Assembly (NCBI GenBank): GCA_965227295.1
Contig: OZ245742.1
Span: 160,001-224,000 of the forward strand
DNA: 64,000 nucleotides
From: Leptonemataceae bacterium
Lineage (GTDB): Bacteria > Spirochaetota > Leptospiria > Leptospirales > Leptonemataceae
Direction of reading: 5' to 3'
In this document: piece after piece, positions 11,600-57,298 of the stretch
How positions within the stretch are numbered: position 1 is the first letter of the stretch
Layout of the letters: each line of letters starts with the position of its first letter
Made by a program: the position numbers and the translations under genes
The notes under the pieces: model-generated
Told to the model about the DNA's origin: nothing
The model's input: only the letters and a program-made list of their open reading frames with translations
Databases searched by the model: none

Positions 11600-13819
11600 T
11601 TACTCAGCCCCCGGATGATACTCCCGCTCGGTGCGCGCACGCAGGTCCGCCTCGTGAAACAAGGACGGCCGCAGCAGTCGCCGGCTCATGAGGAACGCCT
11701 GGTCGTCGTAATGCTCCGACTCCGGCCGCGAGACGTTGCCGAACTGATGCAACGAAAACGAACGCGGGCCGTCCGGCGTGAACTCCACGATCTGCACGTA
11801 GGTGTCCCCGGCCCAACCGACGAGCTTGCCGTCCGGCGCGGGTTTGGTGTGCACGGCGTTGAGAATATCCGGCCCGCCGCCCATGGGCAGGTCCGTTTCG
11901 CCGCGACGAATGCGCTGGGCCTCGCCGAGGGGCACGTCGATGCGGCCAAAGTTCTTTAAAAGATAAGTTACGGCCTCGCGGAATCCGTCGCAGGGATCCG
12001 GGCGGTACAACGAGCGCTCCAGGACCGCGGTGATCGTGGGCTGGAACGTACGAATCGCCAGGGCGGCCGTGGTGTCCGTCATATGGGTGCTGCCGTCCCA
12101 GCGATGCAGCATTTCGAGGCCGCGCTGTTCGAAGCCGTTCCGCGCCTCGCAGCCGGCGAGCACCGGATAGATGACGTCCGTGTAAATGGGCGCGTCCTTC
12201 GAGTAGTATTGATCCCACTTGTAGCGCTGGAATTCCTCGGCCGTGATGGACTCGTCGCCGCCGAAGAGTTCGCGCGAGCGGATCGCGCGGTTGGTCATGC
12301 GTGTTTCGATGCCGTCCGCCGGAGAATAGTTGTCGCGCCGCGGGTTGCCGTTGCCGGTGGTCGTAAAGAACGGATCGCTGTTGCAGTTCTGTACGAAATC
12401 CGCCGGCGGGTTCAGCACCGACGGCAACCGGTCAAAAGGCAGCACTTCCGGATCCCACAGCGCCGCGAGTTCATTGCCGGGCAGCACGGTACGATAGTCG
12501 TAACGCTCGTCGCGATTCGGCAGGAGGGCGTTATAAACGTAAAAGATGTTGCGCGCATCGGCGTAGATCGTATGCATCATGGGAACGTTCTGGCGGCGCA
12601 TGGCGTCACGCCACTCATCGAAGTTGCGCGCCTTGTTCATACGATACCACTGCTCCACGGCCCCGACCTCGCGCCCGGCGGCGGTGTGGCGAATGGCATA
12701 ATAACCGGCCTTGCCCTTGATCACCGGGCCGTGCACGCTCCGGTAAAACGTCTGCTCCAGCACGAACTCCGGCAGCGGAATCTCGAACAAACCCACGTCC
12801 ACCATGATCCGCGAGCGATACGTTTCTAACTCACGCCACTCATCACCCAGGCGGTACGTCAACTCACGCTCCGGATGCATCTCCAGTTTATAGATGTCCC
12901 ACATGTCCGGCGCGTTTACCGTGTGCGCCCAGCCCAAATTCTCGTTGTGCCCCACGAAAATGACCGGGGCGCCGGGGAACGTGCCGCCGATCGTGTTCCA
13001 GCCTTCCTCCGAAACGACGTGGGCCTCGTACCAGGCCACGGCGCCGGTGTAAGGTTGATGTGAGTTTACATTAAGCCGCACGATGCCGTCCGCCGAGCGC
13101 CGCCGGCCCACGGCGTGAGCGTTCGAACCGATCATGCGCGGAAAAACGACAGCCGCCTCATCCTCCTGCTTCTCGTAGTAATCCCCGAAGCCCGCCTGCA
13201 CCGGATCGCCCACGTTCAACTCCTCGGCGTCCAGGATCGCCTTGATTCCGGCGTTCACGCGCTGAAACAGCGGCAGCTTATGTGCGAAACCGCGGGCGAC
13301 GTCGACGCCGGTGATGGGCAGAAAACGGCCGTCGGCCTCGTCGGGATGACGGGCGGCATAGAAGTTCAGGCCGGCGGCGTAAGCTTCGAGGACGGCTTTC
13401 ATCTCCGGTGAGAGCCGTGCGTACTGCTGTTCCGCCGCTGCCTGAACGCGAAACGAGCGCACAAAGAAGTCGTTGCCGACGGCGGTTTCGCTCAGGAGCG
13501 CGCGGGACAGTTCGCCCCGGGCCGCGGTGAGCGCGAGGAAGATGGTCCGCCAGTCGTCCTCGGCGTGGGCGTAGGCGAAACCGAAGGCCGCGTCGGCGTC
13601 GGTCTTACCGAAGATGTGCGGCACGCCGAATTCATCGCGGACGATGGTGACACGTTCGGCCCGGACGAGCTGCGCCTCGGTGACGCCGGGCACCGCCGGA
13701 AACGTGAGCGCCGGGCGCACGAGATACCAGAGCCAGCCCAGGAAAACCAGCGCAAGCACGGCGACAAACACCCGCATAATACGGGACGAAAAGGGAATAC
13801 GTTCGAGGAGCTTCATCAT
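11600..13819 (-). CDS. penicillin acylase family (Ntn hydrolase) protein, membrane-anchored
   Basis: IVRDEFGVPHI, FAYAHAED, GSNAHAV (nucleophile Ser), NSHQP, WAHTVN and NCN motifs; start taken at ATG 13819. Confidence 0.93.
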   Translation of the reverse strand: MMKLLERIPFSSRIMRVFVAVLALVFLGWLWYLVRPALTFPAVPGVTEAQLVRAERVTIVRDEFGVPHIFGKTDADAAFGFAYAHAEDDWRTIFLALTAARGELSRALLSETAVGNDFFVRSFRVQAAAEQQYARLSPEMKAVLEAYAAGLNFYAARHPDEADGRFLPITGVDVARGFAHKLPLFQRVNAGIKAILDAEELNVGDPVQAGFGDYYEKQEDEAAVVFPRMIGSNAHAVGRRRSADGIVRLNVNSHQPYTGAVAWYEAHVVSEEGWNTIGGTFPGAPVIFVGHNENLGWAHTVNAPDMWDIYKLEMHPERELTYRLGDEWRELETYRSRIMVDVGLFEIPLPEFVLEQTFYRSVHGPVIKGKAGYYAIRHTAAGREVGAVEQWYRMNKARNFDEWRDAMRRQNVPMMHTIYADARNIFYVYNALLPNRDERYDYRTVLPGNELAALWDPEVLPFDRLPSVLNPPADFVQNCNSDPFFTTTGNGNPRRDNYSPADGIETRMTNRAIRSRELFGGDESITAEEFQRYKWDQYYSKDAPIYTDVIYPVLAGCEARNGFEQRGLEMLHRWDGSTHMTDTTAALAIRTFQPTITAVLERSLYRPDPCDGFREAVTYLLKNFGRIDVPLGEAQRIRRGETDLPMGGGPDILNAVHTKPAPDGKLVGWAGDTYVQIVEFTPDGPRSFSLHQFGNVSRPESEHYDDQAFLMSRRLLRPSLFHEADLRARTEREYHPGAE

Positions 13820-13876
13820 TGACTGAATACCGGACCTCAGAAAGAACTGAACAAAACCGCTGTAAATCGGATTTTT

Positions 13877-14869
13877 ATGCCCGCACCCGCCCTTCGCCAG
13901 CGCACCGCCCCCGTGACGTCCTTCCTCATTCTCGTCAACACCGCGGTCTACATCTACGTCACCATCTTCGTCGGCCAGGCGGGCTCCTTCGCCTTCCTCG
14001 ATGACTACGGCCTGAACCCGCAGGAGTTCTGGGAGCATCAAAAAGTGTGGCAGCCGCTCACTTCGATGTTCATCCACGTCTTTCTCATTCATTATGCCTT
14101 CAATATGCTGGCGCTGTGGTCCGTGGGCACGCCCCTCGAAATGACCATCGGCTCGGTGGGTTTCGCCTGGCTCTACATGATTTCCGGTTTTGCGGGTTCG
14201 ATCTTCCTGTTGATCTTTAATCCGGACCTGCCCGGCGGCGCCCACGGCGCGTCCGGCGCGGTCTTCGGCCTGCTCGGCGCCCTCGCCATCTTTTATCCCA
14301 ACTCACGTCTGCTCGTCATGTTCATTCCCATGAAGGCCATTACCGCCGCCTTCGCCCTGGCCGGCCTGTCGTTGTTCATGTATCTGTTCGACGTGTTGAC
14401 GATCATCGCGCACATGGCGCACCTGGGCGGCCTCGTCGGCGGTTTTCTGTACTCGAAGTTCGCGCTGCAATTACAGATCGGCCGCAGCACGCTGAGGGCT
14501 TCTCCGGGTGTTGCCTGGTGGGACGAACGCAAACGCAAGGCCACGCCCGAAGAAGAGGTGCTGCGCATGATGCGCGGCCTCGCCGACGACGACGCGAAAC
14601 CGCAGCCCCGGTCCCCGTACTCCGACGCGCGAAGCGATGTGTTGAATCAAACGCAGCAGACACCGGATCTTAAGACGCCCGCGCCGGAAGTTAAGGACGA
14701 TGCGGCGCCGATGCCGTCAACGCCGCCGACGCGTGAGGGCCCGCCGGATAGTTCGCCGCCGGATCAGCCGGCGCCTCCCGATGGTTCGCAGAGTCCGGCC
14801 CCGGAGCCGGGCAGCGGAGAGAAGCGGCTGCACTTCAATCCGGAGACGGGCAAGTTCGAGTTACGGTGA
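13877..14869 (+). CDS. rhomboid family intramembrane serine protease with Pro-rich C-tail
   Basis: WQPLTSMFIH, HYAFNM, GASGAVFG (catalytic Ser) and AHMAHLGG (catalytic His). Confidence 0.95.
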   Translation: MPAPALRQRTAPVTSFLILVNTAVYIYVTIFVGQAGSFAFLDDYGLNPQEFWEHQKVWQPLTSMFIHVFLIHYAFNMLALWSVGTPLEMTIGSVGFAWLYMISGFAGSIFLLIFNPDLPGGAHGASGAVFGLLGALAIFYPNSRLLVMFIPMKAITAAFALAGLSLFMYLFDVLTIIAHMAHLGGLVGGFLYSKFALQLQIGRSTLRASPGVAWWDERKRKATPEEEVLRMMRGLADDDAKPQPRSPYSDARSDVLNQTQQTPDLKTPAPEVKDDAAPMPSTPPTREGPPDSSPPDQPAPPDGSQSPAPEPGSGEKRLHFNPETGKFELR

Positions 14870-15745
14870 GTCTCCTGGCCGCTCTCGAATGTGCACATCT
14901 CTCTGCGGAAACGGCACGCGCACGCCGTACTCGCGCATCTTCGCGTGAATCGCAAAGTTCAAATCGCTCACCAGGCGACCTTTGCGGTGCAGCCGTTCCT
15001 TCGTAAACACGCGCAGATCAAACTTTAAGCCGCTGTCACCGAACTCCAGGAAGCGCACCACCGGCTCCGGAAAGTCCAGGACGTCGTCGTGCTCCGCCGC
15101 GGCCTCGAGCAACGCGCGCTGTACATTGTCCAGATCGCTCTCGTAATCGACGAGCAGCGGAATGCGAAAGCGAATGCGTTGTTCGGTGTGGGACCAGTTG
15201 ATCACGTTCTCCGAAACGAAACGCGAGTTGGGAATGATGATGGCGATGTCGTCGTTCGTGAGGACCGTCGTACTGCGCAGGCCGATGTTCAAAACGGTGC
15301 CCTCGACGCCGCCGACTTCGACGCGGTCGCCGATCTTGATCGGCCGCTCGAACAGAATGATCACCCCGCTTACGAAGTTATCGGCGATGTTCTGCAATCC
15401 GAAGCCCAGGCCGACGCCCACGGCACCGGCGATAACGGTGAGCGTCGTCAGATCAATGCCGGTGCTCTGCACGATGACCAGCAGGCCGATCAGAATCACC
15501 ACGTAACGCACGATGCTGCCGATGGCCTGGCGCACGCCGATGTCGACTTTACTCTTCGCGAACAGGCGGTCCGTGATGAGCGCGGTCAGCCGTTTGGTAA
15601 TGACGAACAACAGGATCACGGCGACCAGGAAGTACGTTACTGTCCACACGGTGATGGTCTTACTTTCGAGTTCCACGAGGGGGATGGCCAGCCACTCCGG
15701 CACCGCGCCGAGCATATCCCACATCCATCGCATCATCTCACTCAA
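14861..15745 (-). CDS. small-conductance mechanosensitive channel MscS family
   Basis: GVGLGFGLQNIADNFVSG, ERPIKIGD, IGLRST, IIPNS and PFPQRDVH motifs. Confidence 0.95.
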   Translation of the reverse strand: MSEMMRWMWDMLGAVPEWLAIPLVELESKTITVWTVTYFLVAVILLFVITKRLTALITDRLFAKSKVDIGVRQAIGSIVRYVVILIGLLVIVQSTGIDLTTLTVIAGAVGVGLGFGLQNIADNFVSGVIILFERPIKIGDRVEVGGVEGTVLNIGLRSTTVLTNDDIAIIIPNSRFVSENVINWSHTEQRIRFRIPLLVDYESDLDNVQRALLEAAAEHDDVLDFPEPVVRFLEFGDSGLKFDLRVFTKERLHRKGRLVSDLNFAIHAKMREYGVRVPFPQRDVHIRERPGDSP

Positions 15746-15866
15746 ATCATTCTGCTCCCGTACAACGCGACCGAACGTTGCCCGCGGCCGCCGCCGTGTT
15801 TATACTGTTGCGTGTAAGTATAATAAAAGAAAACGTGGATTCCTTCAACGACTCCCGGACCAATCG

Positions 15867-17252
15867 ATGAACACCATCGCAGCAAAACCCTATCGATCCA
15901 TCAACCCCGCCACTGAAGAAGTGATCTCCGGGTACCCGCACATCGGCGCGGCCGAAGCCGCCGCGGCCGTAGAACGCGGTCACGCGGCCTTTGTGAAGTG
16001 GCGCGAAACAACTTTCGAACATCGTGCACAAATATTGCGCAAGGCGGCGGCCCTTCTAAAAGAAGACAAACGCAAGTTCGCCGAACTCATGGCCCGGGAG
16101 ATGGGCAAACCCCTGGCCGAGGGCGAAGGGGAAATCGAAAAATGCGCCTGGGCCTGCGAGCACTACGCCGAACACGCGGCACAGTATCTCTCCGAAGAAG
16201 ACGTGCAAACCGGGGCGGCGCATGCCTTCGTCAGTTATCAGCCCATCGGCCTCGTACTTGCGGTCATGCCCTGGAACTTTCCGTTCTGGCAGGTCTTTCG
16301 TTTCAGTGCGCCGGCGCTTATGGCGGGCAACGGCGCCATCCTCAAACACGCCGAAAACGTGCCCGGCTGCGCCCTGGCCGTAGAAGACGTGTTCATGCGG
16401 GCCGGTCTGCCGCAGCACTTATTTCAGAATCTCTTCGTCGACCATGCAGTCACGGCGAAGCTCATCGAACACAAACTTGTGCGCGCCGTAACCTTAACCG
16501 GCAGCGTTCGCGCCGGTCGCGCGGTGGCCGCGAAGGCGGGCGAACAGTTGAAGAAGAGCGTCCTGGAACTCGGCGGCAGCGACGCCTACGTCGTTCTGGG
16601 AGACGCGGACCTCGACCTGGCAGCACAGGTCTGCGCCGCCTCACGCATGATCAACGGCGGCCAGTCCTGCGTGGCGGCCAAGCGCTTCATCGTGGTCGAC
16701 GCCGTCTACGACGCATTTCTGAAAAAGTTTCTCGAAAGATTGCGCACTGTGAAGATGGGCGATCCGTTCACCGACGGTGTAACCCTGGGCCCCCAGGCCC
16801 GCGCGGATTTGCGCGACGATTTGCACGATCAGGTGCGACGCAGTGTGGACGCCGGAGCCGAAGTCGTACTCGGCGGCGAAATTCCGGACGGCCCCGGTTT
16901 TTATTATCCGCCGACGGTACTCACGAACGTCGCGCCCGGCAGCCCGGCGTACTCCGAGGAACTCTTCGGCCCGGTGGCGGCGGTGATTCGCGCGAAGGAC
17001 ACCGACGACGCCCTGCGCATCGCCAACGACAGCGACTACGGCCTCGGCGGCGCCATCTTCACGGCGGACGTCGAGCGCGGGGAACGCCTGGCCGCGGAAC
17101 GTTTCGACAGCGGCAACGTCGGCGTCAACGGCCAGGTACGCTCGGACCCGCGTCTGCCTTTCGGCGGCGTCAAGGACAGCGGCTACGGCCGGGAGCTCTC
17201 GCACTTCGGCATCCGCGAATTCGTCAACATCAAAACGGTGTTGCGCTCGTAA
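15867..17252 (+). CDS. NAD(P)-dependent succinate-semialdehyde dehydrogenase (Sad/GabD-type ALDH)
   Basis: SINPATE, MPWNFPFWQ, TLTGS, VLELGGSD, GQSCVAAKRF, EELFGPV and PFGGVKDSGYGRE motifs. Confidence 0.93.
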   Translation: MNTIAAKPYRSINPATEEVISGYPHIGAAEAAAAVERGHAAFVKWRETTFEHRAQILRKAAALLKEDKRKFAELMAREMGKPLAEGEGEIEKCAWACEHYAEHAAQYLSEEDVQTGAAHAFVSYQPIGLVLAVMPWNFPFWQVFRFSAPALMAGNGAILKHAENVPGCALAVEDVFMRAGLPQHLFQNLFVDHAVTAKLIEHKLVRAVTLTGSVRAGRAVAAKAGEQLKKSVLELGGSDAYVVLGDADLDLAAQVCAASRMINGGQSCVAAKRFIVVDAVYDAFLKKFLERLRTVKMGDPFTDGVTLGPQARADLRDDLHDQVRRSVDAGAEVVLGGEIPDGPGFYYPPTVLTNVAPGSPAYSEELFGPVAAVIRAKDTDDALRIANDSDYGLGGAIFTADVERGERLAAERFDSGNVGVNGQVRSDPRLPFGGVKDSGYGRELSHFGIREFVNIKTVLRS

Positions 17253-17282
17253 CATTTCGTAAAAAGCACTTAACGGGAGATC

Positions 17283-19070
17283 ATTATTCTCGAAATCGCA
17301 TTCGTTCTCGTACTGATCGTCGCCTTCTTGCTGGTGCTGGCCTTCGAAAAGCTCCGGCCGGACACGGCCGCGCTCTGCGTCATGGCGGCGCTCATGCTCG
17401 GCGGCGTCGTCGACCCCGGCGAAGCCGTGCAGGGATTCGCCAACAAGGCCACGCTCACCGTGGGCGCCATGTTCGTTTTGAGCGCCGGTCTCTTAAAGTC
17501 AGGTGCGCTGAACTTTGTGGCGGACAGCCTCGGCCACGTCTTTGATCGCAATTTCTGGGCCGGCCTCATTGCCATGATGTTTCTCATCGGCGCCGTGTCG
17601 GGTTTCATCAACAATACCGCTGCCGTGGCCATCTTCCTGCCGTTGATCCTGCGTGCCGCCCGCCGTGCGGAGGTCTCCGCTTCGAAGGTGCTTATGCCGC
17701 TATCGTTCGCCTCGATGTTCGGCGGGGTCTGCACGTTGATCGGCACGTCCACGAACATCCTGGTGAGTTCCATCGCCGCGGAGCGCGGCCTGGAACCCTT
17801 CGGCATGTTCGAGTTCGCGCCCCTGGGCGTGTTGATCTTCGCCGCCGGCCTGCCGTACATGCTGTTCGCGGCCGCGCGCCTGATTCCCGAACGCGAAGCA
17901 GGCCGGGAAAACTTAACCGGTGATTTTCAGATGGCGAACTATCTCACCGACGTCCGCGTTCTCCAGGATGCGGGCTGGGCCGGCAAGGCCATGCGGGAGT
18001 CACCCTTCTGCGACGGCACCGACGACGACATCGAGATCCTGGCCGTTTATCGCGAAGACGAAGTACTGAAGAATCTCAGCGGAGATACGATCCTCAAGGT
18101 CGGCGACGTGCTCCGCATTCGCAGCGACGTCGAGCGCATCCGCGACCTACAACGTTCCCGCGGCGTGCTGGTTCTCGCTTCCGGCGGATTCCAGGACAAG
18201 GACCTGAACACCGATGAGGCCGTCCTGCTGGAAGCCGTGATCGCGCCGAACTCGCCGATCTCCGGCAAGACACTAAAAAAAACACGGCTGCTCAAAAATT
18301 ATGGCGCTTCGATTCTCGCCATCGGCCGACGCGGTCGCATCTTACACGAGCGCCTGGACGAGGTGGAACTCGGCCCCGGGAACACCCTGCTCCTTCAGAT
18401 ACCGCCGGAGCAACGCGAAGATCTCACGAACGATCCGGCATTCGTGATGGCCTCCGAGGTACCGGAGCCCGAGGAACGTCCGGCAAAGATCTGGCCGTCG
18501 GTGTTGATCGTCGCGTCCGTGGTGACCCTGGCTGCGGCGGGTGTCTTTTCGATTCTAACAGCCAGCATCGCCGGCGCCGTGCTGATGATTCTTACCGGCT
18601 GCCTGCGCGCCGAGGAGGCCTACGAGGCCATCGACTGGCAGGTCATCTTTTTGCTCGCAGGTGTGCTCAGTCTCGGCGTCGCCCTGGAAACCACCGGCGG
18701 TGCGGAACTGCTCGCCGACGGCATTGCGAAGTACCTGGGACCGCTCGGTCCCGCGTTTATTGTATCGGCGATCTTTCTCGTAACGTTCCTGTTGACGAAC
18801 GTCATTTCCAACAACGCCTCGGCCGCGCTCTTTGCCCCCGTCGCGATTACCCTGGCCGAATCCCTGAACGTCGACCCGCGCCCGCTGCTCATGGCAGTGA
18901 CCTTCGCCGCGTCGCTGTCGTTCATGACGCCCATCGGCTACCAGACGAACACCTTCATTTACGGGCCGGGTCGTTATAAATTCGGCGACTTCTTTCGCGT
19001 GGGTACCCCGCTGAACTTTATTCTGTGGGTCATCGCATCGGTGATGATTCCGGTGATCTGGCCGTTTTAA
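17283..19070 (+). CDS. SLC13/CitMHS-type permease with TrkA-C domains
   Basis: SGFINNTAAV, GGVCTLIGTSTNI, ISNNASA and TPIGYQTN motifs with two central TrkA-C-like domains. Start uncertain: ATT at 17283/17286 after GGGAG, or TTG at 17328. Confidence 0.9.
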   Translation: MILEIAFVLVLIVAFLLVLAFEKLRPDTAALCVMAALMLGGVVDPGEAVQGFANKATLTVGAMFVLSAGLLKSGALNFVADSLGHVFDRNFWAGLIAMMFLIGAVSGFINNTAAVAIFLPLILRAARRAEVSASKVLMPLSFASMFGGVCTLIGTSTNILVSSIAAERGLEPFGMFEFAPLGVLIFAAGLPYMLFAAARLIPEREAGRENLTGDFQMANYLTDVRVLQDAGWAGKAMRESPFCDGTDDDIEILAVYREDEVLKNLSGDTILKVGDVLRIRSDVERIRDLQRSRGVLVLASGGFQDKDLNTDEAVLLEAVIAPNSPISGKTLKKTRLLKNYGASILAIGRRGRILHERLDEVELGPGNTLLLQIPPEQREDLTNDPAFVMASEVPEPEERPAKIWPSVLIVASVVTLAAAGVFSILTASIAGAVLMILTGCLRAEEAYEAIDWQVIFLLAGVLSLGVALETTGGAELLADGIAKYLGPLGPAFIVSAIFLVTFLLTNVISNNASAALFAPVAITLAESLNVDPRPLLMAVTFAASLSFMTPIGYQTNTFIYGPGRYKFGDFFRVGTPLNFILWVIASVMIPVIWPF

Positions 19071-19187: not shown

Positions 19188-19346
19188 ATGAATCCGAATC
19201 ATGCCGAAGAACTGACCAACCTTGCACCGAACGCGGACATTGCTCCGGACGCTCTGGCGCGCGTGGTCGACGAAGTGCGCGCTGAAGCGCAAATCAGCCC
19301 CGACCGCTACCTGAACGAAACGATCGTTCCGGAAGGCGGCGAGTAA
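19188..19346 (+). CDS. Pup-like small protein modifier (52 aa, C-terminal GGE)
   Basis: GAGGT RBS then ATG 19188; MNPNHAEELTNLAPNADIAPDALARVVDEVRAEAQISPDRYLNETIVPEGGE*; acidic, ends in GGE, and lies 11 nt upstream of a PafA-family gene. Confidence 0.8.
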   Translation: MNPNHAEELTNLAPNADIAPDALARVVDEVRAEAQISPDRYLNETIVPEGGE

Positions 19347-19357
19347 GTCGCTTCTCC

Positions 19358-21235
19358 GTGGTCGCATCCCGGCTGTTCGGCCAGGAGACGGAGTATGCCA
19401 TCCGTTTCTCGGCTCCGGCCGGGTCTGAGTCCGCGGAGCGCCCCGATCATTCCCTCATCTTCCACGCCTTTCGTGCGGCCGTAAAAAAGTTCGTCCGCAT
19501 CCGCCCCGGCGAGTGGTCGTTCTTCAAAGAATCCTTCTTCGTCGAGAACGGCGGCGCCTTTAACTACGAATCCCAGCCCTATGCCCCCGAGGCCGGCCTC
19601 ATCGAGGGGGCCACACCGGAATGCCGTTCGCCCCTGGAGTGCCTCGTCTACCAGCGCGCCCAGGAGCAACTGCTCCTCCGGGCCATCCCCGAGGCCGAGG
19701 CCTATTTACGACGCAAGGGTTTTCCGGGTTCCCTCGGCCTCCTGAAAAATTGCCGCGACGCCGAAGGCCACATCTACGGCGCCCAGGAAAACTACGGAAC
19801 GGACATTGCCTCGGGCCTGCGTCTCTGGCTGTATCGGATGGGGCTCGTGTTGTGCCTGCCGCTGCTGTTGTTCTGGTGGGTCCTGTATATGGGCTGCCTT
19901 ACGCTCGTCGTTACGCTGTCGCTGTTGGTACAGTTCTGTCTCTGGCTCGGCTATAGTTTGCTGCACGGCTTCTTAAGTTTTCCCGCCTGGATGTTACGCA
20001 GCGCATTCTTGCAAAAACGCGTAGACGATCTTACGGCCTTCAAGGATCGGCTGGCCGCGCGCTGGTCCATGTTCTCCGAGAGTACCGAGTTTCATCGGCT
20101 CATCGCCCGCCTGGAGTATACGATCTTCTTTCCGCCGACGCTGATTATCCTCTGGCCGTACACGCTGCTGCTGCGTCTGTGCGCCTTCGTACCCCAGCGC
20201 CGCCAGTTGACGGCGTTTTTCGCGTCCCGGGTAATCTTCACCGGCGCCGGCACGTTGCTGGAAGCCGGAGCAGATGCCGGTGGCGGCGTATTTGCCCTTT
20301 CGGAAAAGGGCACCGCCGTAAAACGCATGAATCGAATCACCATCGGTCCCGAGGACCGGCCGCTCTTCGACAACGGCAATCTGCACAAGGCCTTCATGCT
20401 GGCCGGACTGAGCACGCTGGTGTTGCGACCGGCTTCGTTCCTGGGACTCTTCACGCGCCGGTCACGTTTTCAAATCGGTATGGCCGACTCCAACCGCGCC
20501 CAGTTTGCCGAGTATTTGAAGTTCGGGACGAGCCTGTTGGTCCTGGACGCCTTCGAGGCCGGCTACTTAAAAGATGCGCCGCGCCTGCGCCGGCCGGTAC
20601 GCTCCCTGCGTGAGCTCGTCCACGATTGCAGCCTGAGCACGAGCGTGCCCGTACATCGCCTTACAACGACGGACGGCGAACGCAAACGCAACGCAAACGC
20701 CCTGGAGCTCCAGCGCTGGTACCTGGAACGCGTGCGGCAGTATCTACACGACCGCGACGCCGACGAGGGCGCGGCGTCCATTACACCGGAGCGAGTGGAG
20801 GAACGCGAGATTTTCCGGCTATGGTCGGAATGCCTGGATCTCTTAACTGACGATCCGGGAAAGTTAATCGGCCGACTGGATTGGGTTACGAAACGTTATC
20901 TCATCGAAGCCGCCGGACGCGACCTGGCCTTCTCCGCGCAGAAGAAGATCGACCTGGGCTACCACGAACTCGGCGGCGCCTATTTCGATCGCCTGGAAGC
21001 CGAGGGCATTGCACCGAAGCTCGCCCCGGACGATGCCGTGAGCACGGCCGTATTCCAGCCCTCGTCGCCGGAGCGGGTCCAGCTCCGCTCGCGTCTGATT
21101 CGGGACAGCAGTTACGGCGGGCGACGCATTACCGTATCCTGGAACCGTGTACGCATCGGCGACTGGTGGGACCGTAAGATCATCTCTCTTGATGTTTACC
21201 GCAATCAAAAGAACAAGGGCGACGGGCATCCATGA
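19358..21235 (+). CDS. PafA/PafA2-family Pup ligase with transmembrane insertion
   Basis: PafA motifs in the expected order: RLFGQETEY, NGG, IEGATPEC, KNCRDAEGHIYGAQENY, FFASRVIFTGAG, IGMADSN...LKFGT, ALELQ, LDWVTK, IDLGYHEL, RSRLI, VSWNRV. Confidence 0.88.
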   Translation: MVASRLFGQETEYAIRFSAPAGSESAERPDHSLIFHAFRAAVKKFVRIRPGEWSFFKESFFVENGGAFNYESQPYAPEAGLIEGATPECRSPLECLVYQRAQEQLLLRAIPEAEAYLRRKGFPGSLGLLKNCRDAEGHIYGAQENYGTDIASGLRLWLYRMGLVLCLPLLLFWWVLYMGCLTLVVTLSLLVQFCLWLGYSLLHGFLSFPAWMLRSAFLQKRVDDLTAFKDRLAARWSMFSESTEFHRLIARLEYTIFFPPTLIILWPYTLLLRLCAFVPQRRQLTAFFASRVIFTGAGTLLEAGADAGGGVFALSEKGTAVKRMNRITIGPEDRPLFDNGNLHKAFMLAGLSTLVLRPASFLGLFTRRSRFQIGMADSNRAQFAEYLKFGTSLLVLDAFEAGYLKDAPRLRRPVRSLRELVHDCSLSTSVPVHRLTTTDGERKRNANALELQRWYLERVRQYLHDRDADEGAASITPERVEEREIFRLWSECLDLLTDDPGKLIGRLDWVTKRYLIEAAGRDLAFSAQKKIDLGYHELGGAYFDRLEAEGIAPKLAPDDAVSTAVFQPSSPERVQLRSRLIRDSSYGGRRITVSWNRVRIGDWWDRKIISLDVYRNQKNKGDGHP

Positions 21236-21609
21236 GATTGAGCCGAACGGCGTTTGTAATCTTTCTGGGCCTGTGTTGCGGCGGCTGTTACTCCGCATCC
21301 TTCCGTCCGGCGGACGATTATCCGAACCTGCGACGGATAGACGTGCAACCAGGCGACGTCGTGCTCGTCTACGAGCGCCCGGAACGATCTTTCGTAATTC
21401 TCGGTGGTATGGAAGTTCGTGACGTCGACAGTTTGCGCGATCCGGATTTTCAGGAGTTCGTCCGGGCGGAAGCGGCCCGCCGCGGCAGTACGGGTGCCTG
21501 GGTTCTCAGCAACAGCGCGCGCACCGCGGCCCATGCGACGTTCGGTGAGTGGTTCAACCCGGGCGGCGGCATCGGCATCGTACGCGTGTTGTTGTTTCAC
21601 TTTGAGTAG
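21232..21609 (+). CDS. putative lipoprotein
   Basis: ATGA overlap with the ligase stop; MRLSRTAFVIFLGLCCGGC signal peptide with Cys candidates for lipidation. Confidence 0.7.
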   Translation: MRLSRTAFVIFLGLCCGGCYSASFRPADDYPNLRRIDVQPGDVVLVYERPERSFVILGGMEVRDVDSLRDPDFQEFVRAEAARRGSTGAWVLSNSARTAAHATFGEWFNPGGGIGIVRVLLFHFE

Positions 21610-21961: not shown

Positions 21962-23482
21962 TCACGCCAGCTCTCCCTTCTTGACCTTGCCGTTCGGTGT
22001 TCGCGGCAAGGCATCGAGGAACGTCAGTACTCGCGGACACTTATAATCCGCTAAGTTGTTTCGCGCAAACTCTAAGACTTCCACCTCGAAGCGCGCTCGA
22101 TCCGTCGCATCCAACTGCCCGGTCGTTCGCCCGCTTCGCGCCGCATCACTCAACACCACGAACGCGCCGATCATCCGCAAATCCCGCACCTGAACCTCGC
22201 GCACGGCAACCTCGGCAATCAAATCGCAGCCCGCCAGCGCGCGCTCGACTTCCAGCGGCGACACGCGATAGCCGAAGGCGTTCATAACATCGTCGGCGCG
22301 GCCGTCATAATGAACGTAGCCGTCGGCGTCGATGCTCGCGCGATCGCCGCCGCAAAACCATTCGCCGTTTCGCAGCGGCAATTCCGGCGCCTGGTCCGGG
22401 CCGCGCCAGTAGCCGAGCATGAGCCCGGGATCGTCCCGGTGCACGGCGAGCAGGCCCGCCCCGGATTCGTCCGCCGCCTGAATCGTTACACGTCGGCCGG
22501 GCTGCGGCCGCCCCGGAAGCCCCGGCCGTACCGGCACCGCGGGGCCGCTGGAAATGTACGTGGAGATCTCGCTCATACCCAGGGCCTCGTAGAGTTCGCG
22601 CCCGGTAGCCTCTTTCCAGGCCGCATACAATTCCGGCGACAACGCCTCGCCGGCCGTAAGGCCGTGGCGCAGCTGCGAGTCACGCACTAACGTTAAGTCA
22701 CCGTACTTTAGTATGCGTCGATACAACGACGGCACCGCGGCGAAGAGGCTCGCCCCCTGTTCCTGGATCAATCGCGGCCAGACGCCCGGTTCGATCCAAC
22801 CGCGCACGAGCACGGCCGCAGCCCCCGCGGCCCAGGGATCCATCAACCCGACGCCGAGGCTGTAGGTCCAGTTGAGTTGCCCCGCATGGAGCAGGCGATC
22901 CTCCGGCCGCAGATCAATCCAACCGGGACCCGCGATCGGGCGGCGCCCGAGGATACTGCGATGCGCGTGCAGGACGCCCTTTGGTTCGCCGGTGGTCCCG
23001 CTGGTGTAAATCAAGAACGCCGGATCGTCCGCATGCGTTTCCGCGAACGATGCGCCCGGCCTCGATTCTTTAAGTTCTGAAAATGTTACATTAACATCCG
23101 AAGCACGCTTCGGCAACGGCAATCCGGGATCGCCGCACACGAGCGCCGGCCGGGCATGCTCGATCAAGAAGCGTACTTCCGGCGCGCTCAGTTGCGGCGA
23201 AACGGGAACCGGCACCAACCCCGCGGCGACGGCTCCGAAGAACGCGAAGGCGAATTCCGGCCCGTGTTCCAGGCGCACCAGCAATCGTTCCCCGCGCCCC
23301 AGCCTGCGCAGGCCCGCGGCGACCGCCAGTACCTCCGCGCGCACTTCGGCAAAACTCCACTCCCGCACCGACAACGTTCCGCTCGCCGCGACGTCGACAA
23401 ACACGAGCGCCGTATCGTCGTCCCGACGCAGGCCGTCTCGTTCCGCAAGGCAATGGGCCGCAAGATTCAACAGGCCGGACAT
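21962..23482 (-). CDS. acyl-CoA synthetase (AMP-binding enzyme)
   Basis: YTSGTTGEPKG, TAGEAL, GMSE, GRADD, VSPLEVE and LPRTPNGKV motifs. Confidence 0.93.
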   Translation of the reverse strand: MSGLLNLAAHCLAERDGLRRDDDTALVFVDVAASGTLSVREWSFAEVRAEVLAVAAGLRRLGRGERLLVRLEHGPEFAFAFFGAVAAGLVPVPVSPQLSAPEVRFLIEHARPALVCGDPGLPLPKRASDVNVTFSELKESRPGASFAETHADDPAFLIYTSGTTGEPKGVLHAHRSILGRRPIAGPGWIDLRPEDRLLHAGQLNWTYSLGVGLMDPWAAGAAAVLVRGWIEPGVWPRLIQEQGASLFAAVPSLYRRILKYGDLTLVRDSQLRHGLTAGEALSPELYAAWKEATGRELYEALGMSEISTYISSGPAVPVRPGLPGRPQPGRRVTIQAADESGAGLLAVHRDDPGLMLGYWRGPDQAPELPLRNGEWFCGGDRASIDADGYVHYDGRADDVMNAFGYRVSPLEVERALAGCDLIAEVAVREVQVRDLRMIGAFVVLSDAARSGRTTGQLDATDRARFEVEVLEFARNNLADYKCPRVLTFLDALPRTPNGKVKKGELA

Positions 23483-23580: not shown

Positions 23581-25596
23581 ATGACGGTCCCCCGCGATGC
23601 GCTGAACGATCATCGCCTGTTCTTTACGGCGCAACCGTTGTTCGAGAACATCGCGCCGCGCAGTGCGGCCTTCCGCAAGTTTCTCGATCAGGTGGAGCTC
23701 GTGCTCTACGCCCGCTCCGAGGAAATCTACGAACCAGGCACGCAATCGGATTATCTCTACCTGGTCCGGGACGGCGAGGTGCACATCGTTTATGGCCAGG
23801 GAAACGGACCGGCACGCACCATCGGCATTCATGGTCGGGGCAGCATCTTCGGCGAGGTCAGCTTTCTCACGCGCGAACCGCATTCATCCTTCGCCGTCGC
23901 CACCCTGGACTCCCACATCTATCGCATCCCCGGGGAAGCCTTCGTCGAACTCATGACCGCCGAGGCCGGCGTCGGACGGGTTATGACTTCCATGTTGTCG
24001 CGCCGATTGCGGCGTTCGCTGTACGAAGAGAGCCACGCGCATCCGGCTTCGATTCATGCGTTGTTTTACCCGGAAGATCCGGAGCGCGGCAGTGAGGTCT
24101 GCGCGGCGCTGGGCGAAGCGTTGGTCCTGGAAAACCCCGGGCCGGTGTTGATCCTTACGTTGAACCCGGCCTCAATGTTCGCCCATCATGAAAACGTAAA
24201 CGGTCTTTCACGCATCTTAGAAAAGTGGCCGGCCGTTCGCATCGAAGAGATGCTCGGTTACATGGATCATCCGGCCGGCTTCGATCTGCTCGTCGCCAAC
24301 GAGGTCTACGGCATGGAGCTGAACCTCGATCGTGTGGTGCAGCTCATGCCGGATTTCCTCGGACGCCTGCGCAAGTACTACGCCACCATCCTGGTGGACG
24401 CCGGCGGTCTCGTCGAGAACCCGGTGCTCTCCCGCGTGCTCTCACAGAGCGACTACGTAATGTTCGTGCGAAACCCCCACGGGGAAAACGATTCCCGCGC
24501 GGGCCGACGCTTTCGTGAAGTCATCGCCTACTGCACGGAGCTAATGGATGATTTTTTCGAACGCGCCATCATTATCTCCGACGAATGCGAGGAGCGCCAC
24601 GGCGGCGCACCGGCGGACTGGCGCGGCTGGAATCCGAACTCGGCCCTGTACAAACGGCACATGCGATTGTCGTGCGTGAGCGGGGGGCCGGCCCATCGCA
24701 TCGAAGAACGCGCATTTCAGATCGGCATCAATCGAATCGCGCGCAAGCTCTCGGGAACCTCGCGCGGCCTCGTCCTCGGCGGCGGCGGGGCGCGGGCCTT
24801 CGCTCACATCGGCGTTATGGAAGTTCTCGACCGCGAAGGCATCGACTTCGACGCGGTGACCGGAACTTCCATGGGTGCGGTCATCGGCTGCGGCTACGCG
24901 ATGGGCCGGGACGCCTCGGAGCTGGCGTACCTCGTGAAACAGATCATCCCGGACTCCGACGCGATCCTCGATAAACGTTTGCCGCTCGTAAGTTTCTTTC
25001 GCGGCAAGAAACTGAACAAGGCGATTCTTTCCGCCTTCGGCAACACGCGCTTCGAAGACCTGGAGATTCCGTTCTACTGCAACGCCGCCGATCTCAACAC
25101 GGCCCAGAGCGTCATCTTCGAACAGGGCTTCGTCTCCACGGCCATTCGCGCTTCGGTCAGTCTGCCCGGCATCTTTCCACCGATGAAACTCGGGCCCTAC
25201 GACCTGGTGGACGGCGGCGTCCTGAATAATCTGCCGGGGGACATCTTACGCGATAAGGGCTTCAACCGCATCATCGGTGTGAACGTTACCCCGCTCGAGG
25301 ACCACCGTTCCTCGGACACCCAGGTGGAAGATCGCCCCGGCGGTCTGTTTCAAAAGATCAAAGACTATTTCAGCCTGCCCCCGATACTGAAAATCATTTA
25401 CCGTTCCACCACGATCCAGGGCATCGAGTTACTCAAGCTGCGTCTGGACGACTTCGATTACCTGTTTCACCCGGACATTGCGCCGTGGGACATCTTCGAT
25501 TTTCACCGGCGCGACGAGATCATCGAAGCCGGTCGCCGCGCGGCTTTGGATAGCCTTCAGGAAATCAAGGACACGTTGTACCGACCGCGGATGTAG
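23581..25596 (+). CDS. cNMP-binding domain / patatin-like phospholipase (NTE-like)
   Basis: N-terminal cNMP domain (FGEVSFL...PHS); [17 protein letters not shown] and DGG patatin motifs. Confidence 0.92.
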
Positions 25597-50535: not shown

Positions 50536-53500
50536 TTACAGGGAAGAAACCCGGTCCGAGGTCTCACCGCTCAAGTACCGTTTTCCGGTAAGGACCCCCG
50601 TATTGATGAGAACATCCGGGGCGTAGGTGAACAGCGATTGCACGAACCGCTGCTGCAAACTCGGGCGCAGTATCACGGCCTCGACGAACTCATTTCCGTG
50701 CACGGCGACGGTGCGCGCCACGTCCCTGGCAGCCGGCACGAACGCATGCGCCTGGACTGCGTCGTCAGCGATACGAACACCGCCCACCCCCGAAGCTCCT
50801 GCCGTCGCCGGCCCTTTTTGAAACTTACGCAGGGTAACGAGACCCAACGCCGCACCGATCCCGGCATCGATGCCCACCAGCCCCCAGTCCACGCTTCCGT
50901 TCTCCACCTGTTGGGTGATGGCGGAACGAGAGAAAGATTCCACCGCGGCGCCGGCTACGCTGGTAATTTGATGCAGAGTCGCCTGGCTTAACTTTACGCC
51001 GGCCTGCGCGGCCCGACTGGAGAGCAGCGCGGCCTTCGTTGCGCCGGCCACAAAACCGCCGAAGACTCCGGACGCCGCCCCGATCCCGATGGAAATTCCG
51101 AACTGCGCCCAATCCCAGGCCGCTCCGGTAAGGACGACCTCGATTCCGTAAGCCAGACCGCTGATGACGACGCCGGTCGTCACACCGACGGCCACCGCGG
51201 AGGCGATGCTACTGGCCGCGACCGCCGCCGCAGCAGCGGAAGCCGCCGCGGCCGCCGAACTCGCGGCGGAAGCAATCACGCCCGCCAGGAACGGCAGAAA
51301 GAACAGGTTTCCGCCCGGGTCGGAGTACGACACGGGATTGTTGCCGGCAAAGGCATAACGATTGATCGACGCGGCGTGAACCGTGTTCGTGCCGAACGTC
51401 AGGGTGTCGGCCTGAAGAAAGCTGCCGATCGCAGGATCGTAGTAGCGCGCATGAAAGAAGTACATGTCCGCGTCGCGATCGTACTCGTTGTTGTTGAATT
51501 TCCCGCGGAAGATGTCGCGGCCGTCGCTCGATTCCTGATAGACTTCGCCGTACGGTTTATAAACGGTATGCGCGACCTCCTTGCCGTCGGCATCCGTAAC
51601 CAGGCTCGTGGAACCGACCTGGTTGTACTGGAAATAGAAGGTCCCTTCTTCCGGGTAACCGTAGCCGTTCCCCCCGGGCCCCAGGAGAAAGTTAAATTCA
51701 AAGAGCTCACTGCCCGGCGGCGCCAGCGGGAACAGGGGAACGTTCCCGGAACCGCTCGTGCCGCACTGAATGCTGAGCGACAGCACCGCCGTCGCGAGAA
51801 TCGGAGCCGGCCAGAGAATTCGGCGACGGCGCCGCTGGTACGACGACACGCGACGACCGGCGTAAAGGATTGCGGCGGTCAGGGAAGCGGCCACCGCCAG
51901 CGCCAGCAGGACCAGCAATCCGACGCGCGCCGTCGCGGGATCCCGAACATAGGCCATCGTCGTATGACTCAGAAAACCGCTCAGGCCACTGATGCTGCCC
52001 ATGTTGTACATCTGCGCCTGGAGAGCGTGGCCGGCACTCGTTCCGTGAATCAAGGCGACGGCGCTTGAATCCGTGGAAATGGCCGCAATGCGACCGCCGG
52101 GTCCCTGCACGTACTCCGTGCTGAGAATGTCGCCGCCCGCGAAGCGCGTCACTTCGAGTTCCCGGTTCACATAGATGGTTTCGTTGCCGTTGCCGTCGAG
52201 TTTTCGAACGCGATCACCGCCGGCATCATACTCGTAGCGTCCGGCCAGCATCCCGTTCCGGGCGACCTGCCGGATCTTGTAGCGACCATCGTAGTCGAGC
52301 TGATAGACGTTCCCGTCGCCGGTCCGGCGTTCGATCACGTTGCCGTGCCCGTCGTACTCCAGGGCAAGGCCGTTGCTGCCGCTCACCGGCCGGCTGCCCT
52401 CGTAAGTTAAGGTGAGATCACCCTTACGGTTAAGGTTCCCCTCACTCGTGTACTCGTAAGTGATTTCTCCGTACGGACCGACCGCCCGCGTCAGATAACC
52501 GAAACCGTTGTAGGAGTACGAGGTATCGTTGTCACCGATGAGGTCTTCCACACCGGTCACCTGATGCATGGCGGTCCAGGTGTAGCGCTGGTCCAGCAGA
52601 TCGGCGGAATCGGAGTCCGTCGTATGGATGGACTGTACCCGGCCGACGACATCGTACGTGAAGTCCGTCGTTACGCCGTTGCCGTAAACGATCTGCCCCG
52701 GCTGAGCGCGCGCCGTATAGTTTGCATAGCGGGCGAAGACCGGCGCGTTGGAATCAGCGCAATCGTTCACGGCGACTTTGATTTCCGCGAGATCGCCGTT
52801 GTCGGCGTAGTCGTAGCAGGCGATCCGCCCGGAGGGGTACCGAACTTCCTGCGGCCGATCCAGGGGATCGTTGCGGTACTCCATGACATGCGTTCCACCG
52901 CTCCCGCCGTCGAGAATCAAACGCGTTACCGCCGGATTGCCGTTGGCATCGTAGGAATATTCGCGGCGGGATGTTTCGGAGCCGGAGGCGTTGCTCATGA
53001 CGGCGGCGGTCATCCGAAATTGCGCGTTCGTGAAGGCATCGTTGTCGTACTCGAATCGCGCGGAGCTGCCGTCGTGGTACGTGACGAGAGTCTTGCGGCC
53101 GAGGTCGTCGTGGGTGAAGCGTTTGTCTTCGCCGTTGTGTCGCTCAAGCTCAAGTAATCCGCGATGATCGTAATAGTAGTCCGTCGTCCCACGCTCGCTG
53201 TTCTGTACCCGGGTGCGGCGCCCCAGAGAGTCCCAGGTAATGTGGGTGTAATTCGAAGCGGCGTCGCTGACCGTCGTTAACCGGTCCAGCTCGTCCCGGA
53301 AGAATCGCTGGGCGATGCTCGTGTTCGTATCCAGGTCGGTCATGTAGATGACCTGGTCGACGCCTTTGAAGTTTCGACAGCGGGTAATCTGCAAACGCGA
53401 CGCGGCCACATTGTGATCTTCACGCAGTTCCGTGAACCGTTCGAGGCCGGGTTCACAGTAGCCCTGGTATCCCGGGCCGGCACCGTGGACGGTGCTGATC

Positions 53501-56500
53501 ACGGCTCCGCCCGGCACAATCACCCGGGCGGCGCGATGATAGGCGTCGTAATAGTAGTGCGTCCAATCCGGAGTCTCACCGCTCCGATGAACGGTGGACT
53601 CCTGCAAGACCTCGCCCCGTAAACCGTAGTACTTCAAACGAACGCGCAGGTCGCTGCCGGCACCGGTCTCACTGCGCACAACCCGCCCCAGGCCGTCAGC
53701 CACTTCCCGCCCCGAAGTCATCCCGGCATCGTCCCAGCTCTGCCGTACCTGCGAGACGGTCACATAGAAACTTCCGTCCCGGCCGTAGCTGCGCCCTTCG
53801 ACCTGCACGATACCATCCGGCCCGGTCCGATAGACGGCGACCGGGCGACCGAATCCGTCGTACTCAATGCGCCGGACATTGCCGTCAGCGTCCGTTTCTT
53901 CAGCGGGCCCGCCGTAGCGCGCGTCAAACTCCTGTCGCTGCGTGAAAGTCTTACCGGCGGCGAAGACCCGCTTGACCCACGGATACGTATGATACGTCGA
54001 CTCGTAGTTGATCAGTTCAACGGCGCCGGACGGCCGCTGGATCTGCGTACGGTTGCCGTAGGTATCGTAGTCATAGTGGCTGGTCAGCCAGTCGTTGCGG
54101 CTGCTGTCGAAGTCGTGCCGCCGAATGACGTTCCCCGCACTATCGTGATCCACGGTGAACTCGGTCATTCGATTCGAGCAGGCACATGCATCACCGGAAA
54201 GAGCGCAACCGGTTCCGACGACGGTTCCTGCCAGGGGTCCCGACCGCTGGTTGATGCTGTCGTTGGCGTAGTTCGAACATGTTTGCAGAGTCCGATTACC
54301 GTCGTTCTCGGTCAGCAGGGCGAGATTGCCGAGGCTGTCGTACTCAAAGTCCGTGGTGTTCGCAATGGAGCCGTCGTACATGTACTTGCGGACGACCTGT
54401 TGCACAAGCCTCGGTGCATAGGATCGAGCGGCAACTCCCGGAACCCAACCCCACTGGTGGTCCACGGAAGAGATCAACGCGCCTGCCGTATGTCGCGTGG
54501 TCTCACTCAGCGACCGACCCACCAGGGGAAAGACGACACTGTAGTCCGTCGTCGTCACGTTACGTTCACTCGGGGCAGTAGTCGTCAAACGCAGGAAGCC
54601 CTGAAAACCGCGGCCCCCCGTATGGAGCGTGGCACCACGATAATCATACGTGCGTTGGATCGTGTGCACCTCGGTGCCGTCCGGGCCGGCTGTCGGCACG
54701 CTCCGCGTATACGTATGCAGCACCGGCAGGGGCGAACTCAGGGCGCGGTGACCGGCCGGAAAATTCATGCCGCTGTTCGCATCGTACTCCGTCAGGCGGC
54801 GATAGCTGAACTCGTGCGTAAGGCTGCCCTGTAAAATCGTTGCGACGGTGTCGTTGGGTTTCGCCTGAGCAACCGGGGAGCTGAAATATATGCGAAAGCT
54901 GGATGAGGTGTCGTTGTCCCAGCTGCTGTGCTCCTGGCGAATAAAGTCCGAACGCCCGTCGCCGTCGAAGTCCCCGGGAATCAGAAAGGCCCCCGGGTCC
55001 GCCCGGAGGTCCCACTGATAGATCCGCCCCTGCGGCTCCAGATAATCGAAGGTCCCGTCCCCGTGCGAAACATAGACCGCAAAGTTTTCGGTCCCTCCGT
55101 CGTCCCAGGCGCCTTTGGTCTGCCGCATAAAGTCCGTGCGGCCGTCGCCGTTGTAGTCCAGGGGAATGATGTTGGCTCCGTTGTCGAAGCGCAGTTTGTC
55201 CTGGTAGATGCTCCCCGGGGGCGAAACGATGTGAAAGTAACCGTTCCCGATGGAAAAGTATACGTTGAACGTATCGAGGTTATCGTCGTCGAGGCGGCCC
55301 TTTTCCTGGCGAATGAAGTCCGTCTTGCCGTCGCCGTTAAAGTCACCCGGAATGATGTTAGCGCCCTCGTCAAAGCGCAGCCAGGCCTGGTACTGAAGAC
55401 CCTCGGGACGGACTTTCTCGAAGGTTCCGTCCCCCTTCGAGAAATACACCTCGAAGGTTCCCACGTTATCATTGCCCCAGACGTTGTGCTCCTGGCGGAT
55501 GAAGTCGGTCATCCCGTCGCCGTTGTAATCGCCGGGGATAATGATCGCGCCGTGGTCCGCCCGCAGGTTGTCCTGATACATTACGCCGGAAGGTGTCCGA
55601 ATGTCGAAGTAGCCGTTCCCCAGCGAGAAGTAGACGTTGAAGGTGTTCGAGTTATCGTTATCCCAGCTGCCTTTTTCCTGGCGGATAAAATCGGTCATGC
55701 CGTCGCCGTTATAATCGCCGGTAATGATATTCGCGCCGGGATTGAAGCGCAGCCATTTCTGATACCGGGTGCCGGCCGGTTCGACGACCGTAAAGTACCC
55801 GTCGCCGTTTGAGAAATAAACCTGAAAGGTACCGCTGTCGTTGCTGCCCCAACTGCCTTTTTCCTGGCGAAGAAAGTCCGTCTTGCCGTCGCCGTTGAAG
55901 TCGCCCGTGATGATGTTCGCACCCGGATCCAGCCGCAGAAGATGTTGGTACGGATCGTTCTTAGCCCCCTGCACGCCCGGGACGACGATGTCGAAATAAC
56001 CGTCTCCCCGGGAGAAATACACCATGAACGTGTCCGTACGGTCCCCGCCCCAACTGCCTTTTTCCTGACGAATGAAGTCCGTCTTGCCGTCGCCGTTGAA
56101 GTCACCCGGGATAAGCTTCGCGCCCGGATCGTAACGAAGGCTCCCCTGATAGGCGGTGCCCCCGGGCATAACCATTCGAAAGCCGCCGTCTAACGATTGC
56201 TGATCGTTCCAGGTGATTTCAATCGGATCGAGGCAGCGCGTCCCATCGCACTCCTCCACGGTTGCTAACTGTGAACGGCCGGAAGTTACTCCGACCCCGT
56301 AATAAAGAAAGTACTGCTTGTATACGCCGTCTGCTGTCGCGCTACGCACGGACTTCAATCGAAAACGCATGCGCGCTTCCCCGGTACCGTCAAAAAAGAT
56401 CACGTGATCCTTCGGCGAACTTACGGCGTCGTACTCGAGGGCCACGTGGCGATTCGGATAAACGATACGCAGTAGCCGGGCCATGCCGCCGGCCTGGTCG

Positions 56501-57198: not shown

Positions 57199-57298
57199 GG
57201 ATGCAGGACCTCGCATAGTGTGGCGAGACCCTCGGTCCAGGAACGGGAAACTCAAACGGAATCGGGAAGGGAATACGGAGATTTCGACAAAGACTCTC

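Follow-up and report, generated by a model that had tools for sequence, protein, structure and literature searches.

Almost all work on pupylation concerns actinobacteria, in which the modification supplies substrates to the proteasome. Iyer, Burroughs and Aravind (2008; Biol Direct 3:45, PMC2588565) describe Pup ligases of Plesiocystis and Rhodopirellula that are unlinked to proteasome genes, are linked to a membrane-protein gene and carry an insertion of four transmembrane (TM) segments directly C-terminal to core strand 4; they suggest that such ligases may pupylate membrane proteins, and they call the small adjacent proteins Pup orthologues. Here we analysed a stretch of 64,000 nucleotides (nt) from a Leptonemataceae bacterium (assembly GCA_965227295.1, contig OZ245742.1, positions 160,001 to 224,000; hereafter the window), in which a 625-amino-acid (aa) ligase of the PafA/Dop family containing a hydrophobic insertion is encoded directly after a 52-aa Pup-like tag. 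We consider this pair, with a probability of about 0.78, to be a proteasome-independent, membrane-tethered ligase and its tag, the ligase being anchored by the insertion with both catalytic halves in the cytoplasm.

As in the Plesiocystis pacifica/Rhodopirellula baltica pair of Iyer et al. (2008), the insertion stands right after core strand 4, the adjacent small gene ends in G[EQ] (here GGE) and there is no proteasome-gene linkage (here HslV only); the Plesiocystis locus itself (L073) was recovered as a relative, with 41% identity and a tag ending VPEGGE. Unlike that pair, the present one has a Leptospirales-type host, of a phylum that the paper does not list, and, by our count, two hydrophobic blocks, most likely two passes and a wedge, in place of four segments; the linked membrane-protein gene is not conserved across 80 loci, which were kept from a scan of genome contigs (222 stretches matched, 200 of them encoding a relative). 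That paper also bears out what a sequence-only reading of the window had stated, namely that TM-inserted PafA homologues had been noted computationally. A TM-insert Pup ligase with its tag has been in print as a prediction since 2008, and we add a member and detail, not a new kind: a host of Leptospirales type, a view of how broad the family is, a tag end that stays constant (Gly-Glu in 68/68, GGE in 63), active-site changes of His to Gln and apparently of Asp to Glu, and a conflict over the number of membrane passes. No laboratory or functional study of these TM-insert ligases was found in the literature covered, which left out most subscription journals. The pair comprises the following features.

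19188..19346, + strand: Pup-like tag gene, 52 aa, ending ...YLNETIVPEGGE (open reading frame (ORF), conserved Gly-Glu end, complex model)
19358..21235, + strand: PafA/Dop-family ligase gene, 625 aa, GTG start, 11 nt past the tag stop codon
19358..19795, + strand: N-terminal catalytic half, aa 1-146, ending at Y146 of the GAQENY strand
19796..20215, + strand: insertion, aa 147-286, between Y146 and F287 (alignments to Protein Data Bank (PDB) structures and PafA, family alignment)
19823..19996, + strand: hydrophobic block 1, aa 156-213, most likely a two-helix TM hairpin (TM1 about 161-177, aromatic turn about 178, TM2 about 179-213)
19997..20116, + strand: charged amphipathic linker, aa 214-253, with predicted helices 216-240 and 243 onward, probably cytoplasmic
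20117..20191, + strand: hydrophobic block 2, aa 254-278, proline-kinked, ending in basic R273...R281-R282
20216..21232, + strand: C-terminal catalytic half and helical tag-binding domain, aa 287-625, matching Dop 166-456

A PafA/Dop-family ligase with an internal insertion

Residues 5-598 of the ligase matched profile positions 1-440/441 of Pfam PF03136 (Pup_ligase) with an expectation (E) value of 9.7e-64 and 216.4 bits against a curated cut-off of 25; because the profile is covered nearly end to end, the family fold is complete and the extra residues are internal. The scores against the NCBIfam equivalogs for PafA (TIGR03686, 155.4 bits, cut-off 551.3) and Dop (TIGR03688, 131.8 bits, cut-off 492.3) were both far under their cut-offs, indicating that the ligase is an orthologue of neither. 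This fits Hecht et al. (2020; PMC7947786), where single-copy planctomycete homologues, 29-31% identical to PafA and Dop, served as outgroup. AlphaFold2 models built from 32 and 148 sequences reached a predicted local distance difference test (pLDDT) of 92.9 and 95.6 and a predicted template modelling score of 0.91 and 0.93, respectively, and showed the PafA/Dop fold with its C-terminal helical domain (Foldseek E 2.2e-23). Comparison of the 148-sequence model with solved structures gave the following matches, listed with root-mean-square deviation (rmsd).

Dop 5lrt: Z 40.8, rmsd 2.5 A, 426 residues aligned, 27% identity
PafA 4bjr_B: Z 35.3, rmsd 3.1 A, 430 residues aligned, 24% identity
YbdK/GCS2 (1tt4, 1r8g): Z 18.8-18.9, rmsd 3.7 A, 302-303 residues aligned, 10-11% identity

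The structural alignment to PafA that the sequence-only reading had proposed as a check was in this way obtained. The ligase shares with PafA (4b0t, 4bjr) its fold, a GhExE signature, a C-terminal domain for tag binding and the presence of a neighbouring tag gene; unlike PafA, to which it is about 24% identical, it has an insertion of about 130 aa, a Gln where GxHENY has His, an inferred Glu for the catalytic Asp, and no Dop, Mpa or 20S partner over cut-off. Dop (4b0r, 5lrt, 7oxy) was the best structural match, from which the ligase differs in that the sequence alignment runs only from residue 83 on and in that the tags end in Glu, leaving no substrate for deamidation. Ligase aa 4-146 aligned contiguously with Corynebacterium glutamicum PafA 10-133 (E 5e-5), which suggests that the N-terminus is PafA-like rather than Dop-like. 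The model has no long loop at aa 19-60, where the Dop-loop (about 40 residues in the N-terminal half) would be sought, and the planctomycete homologues, according to Hecht et al. (2020), align in part with that loop.

The insertion separates GAQENY (aa 141-146) from LTAFFASRVIFTGAG (aa 284-298). The sequence-only reading had described about 130 aa with long hydrophobic runs between these motifs, at 19796..20195 (aa 147-280), and all four strings that it quoted were found in the translation. It had also held that the two motifs are close together in actinobacterial PafA, and in C. glutamicum PafA they do fall near each other, query residue 146 aligning with residue 133 and profile position 270 of a 32-sequence alignment of the ligase family, just past the insertion, with residue 142. 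Against the solved Dop 4b0r, query 83-147 aligned with Dop 99-159 and query 277-598 with Dop 166-456. The ligase therefore has about 130 residues where Dop and PafA have about 6-8. Kyte-Doolittle hydropathy over 19-residue means peaked at 2.28 in aa 154-202 and at 1.67 in aa 260-279, and charged residues were absent from the 53-residue run of aa 161-213.

We aligned all 253 fetched homologues with MAFFT, and 250 of them spanned both flanking motifs. Of these 250, 249 carried an insertion no shorter than 80 aa in which mean hydropathy over 19 residues reached 1.6 or more, the single exception having an insertion of 84 aa with a maximum of 1.47; insertion length ranged from 84 to 241 aa, with a median of 119. 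Conservation at this level indicated that the insertion is not a chance feature. A frameshift, an intein and an assembly artefact were considered as its origin and ruled out, the insertion being in frame and conserved in 249/250.

Family landmarks delimit the two hydrophobic blocks. Block 1 is entered at Y159 (79% W/Y) and R160 (92% K/R), contains P168 (87%) and an aromatic column at 178 (70% W/Y), and is left at P214 (55%) and column 217 (61% K/R). Block 2 is marked by E253 (58% D/E), P259 (94%) and P267 (56%) and then by basic positions at R273 (71%), column 278 (79% K/R), R281 (94%) and R282 (79%). Median lengths across the family were 17 aa for the segment at 161-177, 26 aa for that at 179-213 and 15 aa for the uncharged core at 254-272. 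The hydrophobic blocks had medians of 51 and 23 aa, and two blocks were found in 220/251 relatives and one in 31. Lys and Arg made up 0.159 of the linker versus 0.134 of the rest of the protein, and Asp and Glu 0.137 of the linker. In two relatives (P0112 and P0056) the linker has grown to about 150 and about 70 highly acidic residues, so that it tolerates big additions in the region that forms the hairpin tip in the AlphaFold2 models.

On this pattern, block 1 is most likely a two-helix hairpin bounded by R160, W/Y178 and P214/[KR]217, and block 2 is probably an interfacial or re-entrant wedge and not a full membrane pass. TM1 would run outward from R160 to the aromatic 178 and TM2 back to P214 and the basic 217; the linker would stay in the cytoplasm and block 2 would wedge into the membrane without crossing it, giving two true passes with both catalytic halves cytoplasmic. 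The fold itself cannot straddle the membrane, because the strands that flank the insertion belong to one sheet.

The tag gene and the active site

The sequence-only reading was silent on the adjacent small gene ending in GGE, which we judge to be the strongest context for the ligase. The tag ends VPEGGE and its stop codon lies 11 nt before the ligase start. The longest form of its ORF begins at TTG 19110 and encodes 78 aa; we preferred ATG 19188 as the start because GAGG stands 6 nt upstream. After four partial-match loci (L021, L036, L045 and L050) had been dropped, 76 loci were scored for an ORF of at least 30 codons with a Gly-Glu end in the 500 nt that precede the ligase, and 68 of them had one. 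The last residue was Glu in 68/68, preceded by Gly-Gly in 63; the other five ended DGE, DGE, YGE, HGE and NGE. An alignment of 66 tags (that of the window and 65 others, three having been lost to a stricter filter) had G47 and E48 invariant and Y37, V43, P44 and G46 at least 90% conserved, and the core Y-L-x-[ED]-[ST]-x-V-P-x-G-G-E is specific to this tag family.

The loci that lacked such an ORF in the 500 nt upstream were L068, L071, L075, L080, L081, L082 and L084, of Rubripirellula type, and L010. Seven of these eight belong to one long-stemmed planctomycete subclade, in which the tags of other members end QYGE, QNGE and HHGE; in that subclade, the gene for the tag may have diverged or changed its place.

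We then considered how the tag might meet the ligase. A complex model computed from the ligase alignment and the tag alignment scored 0.82, 0.82 and 0.80 in three runs, with 0.00 for the best of three controls, a result that shows likeness to the PafA-Pup complex 4bjr and not binding as such; the mark applied was reached by 116/157 solved complexes and 2/215 mismatched pairs. At least 84% of contacts were common to the runs and the pLDDT of the partner was at least 72. In the model, tag residues 14-48 touch ligase residues 502-551, the predicted groove for the tag helix, and active-site residues 12, 14-18, 71-73 and 134-143, with the tag tail inside the active site and E12, E71-73, D134-136 and Q143 among the named interface residues. 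In these respects the tag resembles Pup (PF05639), as a small protein encoded beside its ligase, ending in Gly-Gly-Glu and predicted to occupy the same groove.

The catalytic residues are conserved. Invariant in the 32-sequence alignment were E10, E12, N64, E71, E83, E88, N131, D134, Q143, E144, N145, Y146 and several C-terminal Arg/Lys residues. The GhExE Mg/ATP signature on strand 1 reads GQETEY, in which E10 and E12 were kept in 235/250 and 236/250 relatives, the rest being mostly gaps. The last strand ahead of the insertion carries Q143-E144-N145-Y146, so that the His of the PafA/Dop GxHENY motif is replaced by Gln (Q in 237/250 relatives, H in 13). The catalytic Asp of PafA sits within ...NGSRLYLD..., and E71, kept in 244/250 relatives, appears to correspond to it, as it stands at the same distance from the conserved Asn, 7 residues on. 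This assignment is supported by the position of E71-73 at the predicted interface with the tag tail. An alternative HMMER alignment leaves a gap at E71 and places the PafA Asp near P77/E78, neither of which is conserved.

Taken as a two-gene cassette, the locus would work as follows. The first gene would supply the 52-aa Gly-Gly-Glu tag and the second a single PafA/Dop-family carboxylate-amine ligase, which the insertion right after the active-site strand GAQENY would anchor in the cytoplasmic membrane. By analogy with PafA, the tag helix would bind the C-terminal groove and its tail enter the ATP/Mg site, where the terminal Glu would be phosphorylated and then joined to an amine. As only three residues separate the active-site sheet from the departure of the insertion, the acceptor is expected at the membrane surface, and its simplest form would be lysines of membrane or membrane-associated proteins. 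Since the tag ends in Glu at every locus that has one, no deamidase is needed.

Genome context and distribution

The genome, a single contig of 5.94 Mb, has one PF03136 gene. Its sole proteasome-fold match is HslV (NF003964, 278.6 bits). No 20S beta match was over cut-off (27.8 bits), 20S alpha not having been searched separately; the best Mpa/ARC score was 144 bits against a cut-off of 505, and neither Dop nor Pup (PF05639) gave a match over cut-off. The actinobacterial Pup-proteasome set of Mpa/ARC, 20S and Dop was, to this extent, not found in the genome. Five relatives' genomes each had one PF03136 gene, and 0/5 had a 20S beta match over cut-off. The lack of Dop, Mpa and 20S indicated that no Pup-proteasome pathway is served by the tag.

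Neither searching the 80 loci by tblastn with 12 proteins of the window nor all-versus-all clustering of 3,166 ORFs revealed anything conserved apart from tag and ligase; the other clusters were lineage-specific synteny. An ORF of 125 aa at 21232..21609 (+ strand) overlaps the ligase stop codon with its ATG (ATGA) and has a hydrophobic, Cys-rich N-terminus like a signal peptide or membrane anchor, with no Pfam family. It was matched in 2/80 loci, L005 and L006 (recurring as the same-genus L094 and L097), of which L006 is held by one same-genus genome; it could be the linked membrane protein of Iyer et al. or be lineage-specific. Downstream lie an AMP-binding, acyl-CoA-synthetase-like enzyme (21962..23482, - strand) and a protein with a cyclic-nucleotide-binding domain and a patatin phospholipase domain (23581..25596, + strand); these lipid-related genes keep their synteny in L005 and L006, the two closest loci, and not more widely. 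Upstream, 11600..19070 encodes a penicillin-amidase family protein, a rhomboid protease, an MscS channel, an aldehyde dehydrogenase and a CitMHS/DASS transporter with TrkA-C domains, and no such gene is a conserved neighbour of the ligase elsewhere. The window also has a very long ORF (2,394 aa) at 50536..57720 (- strand). A promoter scan was uninformative: sigma-70-like sites numbered 0 where 0.8 were expected, and terminator-like sites 4 where 4.1 were expected. The sequencing runs listed comprised two DNA-type runs, both from one study, and none of RNA.

The family is large. Among 7,999 scored candidates, 586 proteins matched at E <=1e-3, the best non-self match being 54% identical, and an exhaustive search of 1.84 billion representative proteins returned 1,702 matches at E <=1e-3, 718 at 1e-10 and 275 at 1e-30, the last being clusters at 50% identity. 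Related loci were assigned by their record titles to Myxococcota, Planctomycetota, Acidobacteriota, Spirochaetota and Verrucomicrobiota, and named carriers include Plesiocystis pacifica SIR-1, Paraliomyxa miuraensis SMH-27-4 and Roseimaritima sediminicola JC651. Close to home the distribution is patchy: the gene occurs in 9/41 related genomes including its own, that is, in 8/24 others of the same family and 0/16 of the sister family. In a FastTree phylogeny of 73 ligases, rooted at the midpoint for drawing only and leaving out the four partial loci and four with short or cut frames (L041, L054, L060 and L061), 18 planctomycete rows formed one clade (support 100). The window ligase fell in a 14-row clade (support 99) of six Spirochaetota, three Verrucomicrobiota, one Myxococcota, one Acidobacteriota and three unassigned rows.

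Weighing the tethered-ligase reading against its rivals

Several observations weigh against a membrane-tethered ligase for a Pup-like tag. The Gln for His and the apparent Glu (E71) for the catalytic Asp mean that activity is not guaranteed. A tag ORF beside the ligase was missing from 8/76 loci. The Pfam Pup model (PF05639) matched 0/66 tags at E values up to 10, in which the tags differ from Pup, and a profile search of the PDB with the tags gave no Pup chain, only six weak unrelated matches at E >=0.4. The pass of the complex model may in part reflect memory of the solved PafA-Pup structure 4bjr. As for the membrane, both AlphaFold2 runs draw aa 153-213 as one unbroken 61-residue helix without a turn near 178, which clashes with the two-helix hairpin, and blocks 1 and 2 together resemble three segments, an odd number unless block 2 is non-spanning.

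In the AlphaFold2 models a strand at 143-149 is followed by helices from residue 153, the long helix returning through helices 216-240 and 243-275, and such an arrangement could also mean that the insertion is no spanning anchor at all and forms a long two-helix stalk, buried by self-association or dipping into one leaflet. All five models of both runs agree on the unbroken helix and its return helices at pLDDT >90, and two stretches have few residues for a complete pass, the segment at 161-177 with a median of 17 aa and the block 2 core with one of 15 aa. We nevertheless regard a stalk as improbable, since 53 uncharged residues in a row are typical of membrane segments, AlphaFold2 models no bilayer, pLDDT is a local measure, and the conserved Arg, aromatic, Pro and basic residues stand at bilayer-like spacing. 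Predicted anchoring of the ligase at the inner membrane, as the sequence-only reading had it, is well supported by the sequence and by family conservation. The number of passes is left in conflict, with sequence statistics favouring a two-helix hairpin and AlphaFold2 a single long helix; the even helix number which that reading expected is consistent with the data and not demonstrated by them, a hairpin plus a non-spanning segment and the long hairpin of AlphaFold2 both keeping the number even.

A different acceptor would change the meaning of the tethered ligase more than its make-up. It is unlikely, in our estimate, that the GGE tag is joined to a membrane-surface amine other than a proteasome-bound protein lysine, be it a lipid head group such as phosphatidylethanolamine or juxtamembrane lysines marked with a non-proteasomal signal that something like FtsH would read. 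The narrower proposal that the acceptor is the amine of phosphatidylethanolamine or another amino lipid, the ligase lipidating its tag at the membrane, has a model in the eukaryotic Atg8, which is joined to phosphatidylethanolamine. The insertion begins three residues past the active-site strand, which would bring the active site near lipid head groups; the pair has no conserved neighbour that could encode a target or receptor, and the genome has no proteasome to take tagged proteins. None of our data point to lipids, however, and a literature search on the subject returned only titles on autophagy and proximity labelling. All characterised members of the family, to our knowledge, modify protein lysines (PafA), and we rate lipidation as unlikely. 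The enzyme might instead be mainly a Dop-like hydrolase, removing or deamidating tags, as Dop was its best solved-structure match (E 5e-27 in sequence against 1.3e-22 for PafA; Z 40.8 against 35.3) and its residues A85-T86-P87 mix PafA and Dop signatures as tabulated by Hecht et al. (2020). Yet it is the sole family member in the genome, which leaves nothing else to attach the tag; the tags already end in Glu at 68/68 loci, so that deamidation would have no substrate; NCBIfam PafA scores above Dop (155 versus 132 bits); and the N-terminal half is contiguous with PafA, all of which makes a hydrolase very unlikely. Least credible is a small-molecule gamma-glutamyl ligase like GCS2/YbdK next to an unrelated upstream ORF: YbdK shares the fold (Z 18.8-18.9) and the tag has no Pfam family, but the PafA/Dop-specific C-terminal domain is present and conserved, a small ORF with an invariant Gly-Glu end is kept across at least five phyla, and the complex model places the tag in the predicted groove.

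For the family, the tethered-ligase reading would mean a large group of systems made of one enzyme and a tag that needs no deamidation, with no proteasome and with an active site probably held at the membrane. A non-proteasomal tagging pathway, if it exists, would span at least five Gram-negative phyla, and a version acting on lipid head groups would be a bacterial counterpart of Atg8 lipidation. Because named strains carry the pair, the question of what the tag is attached to and what reads it can be tested.

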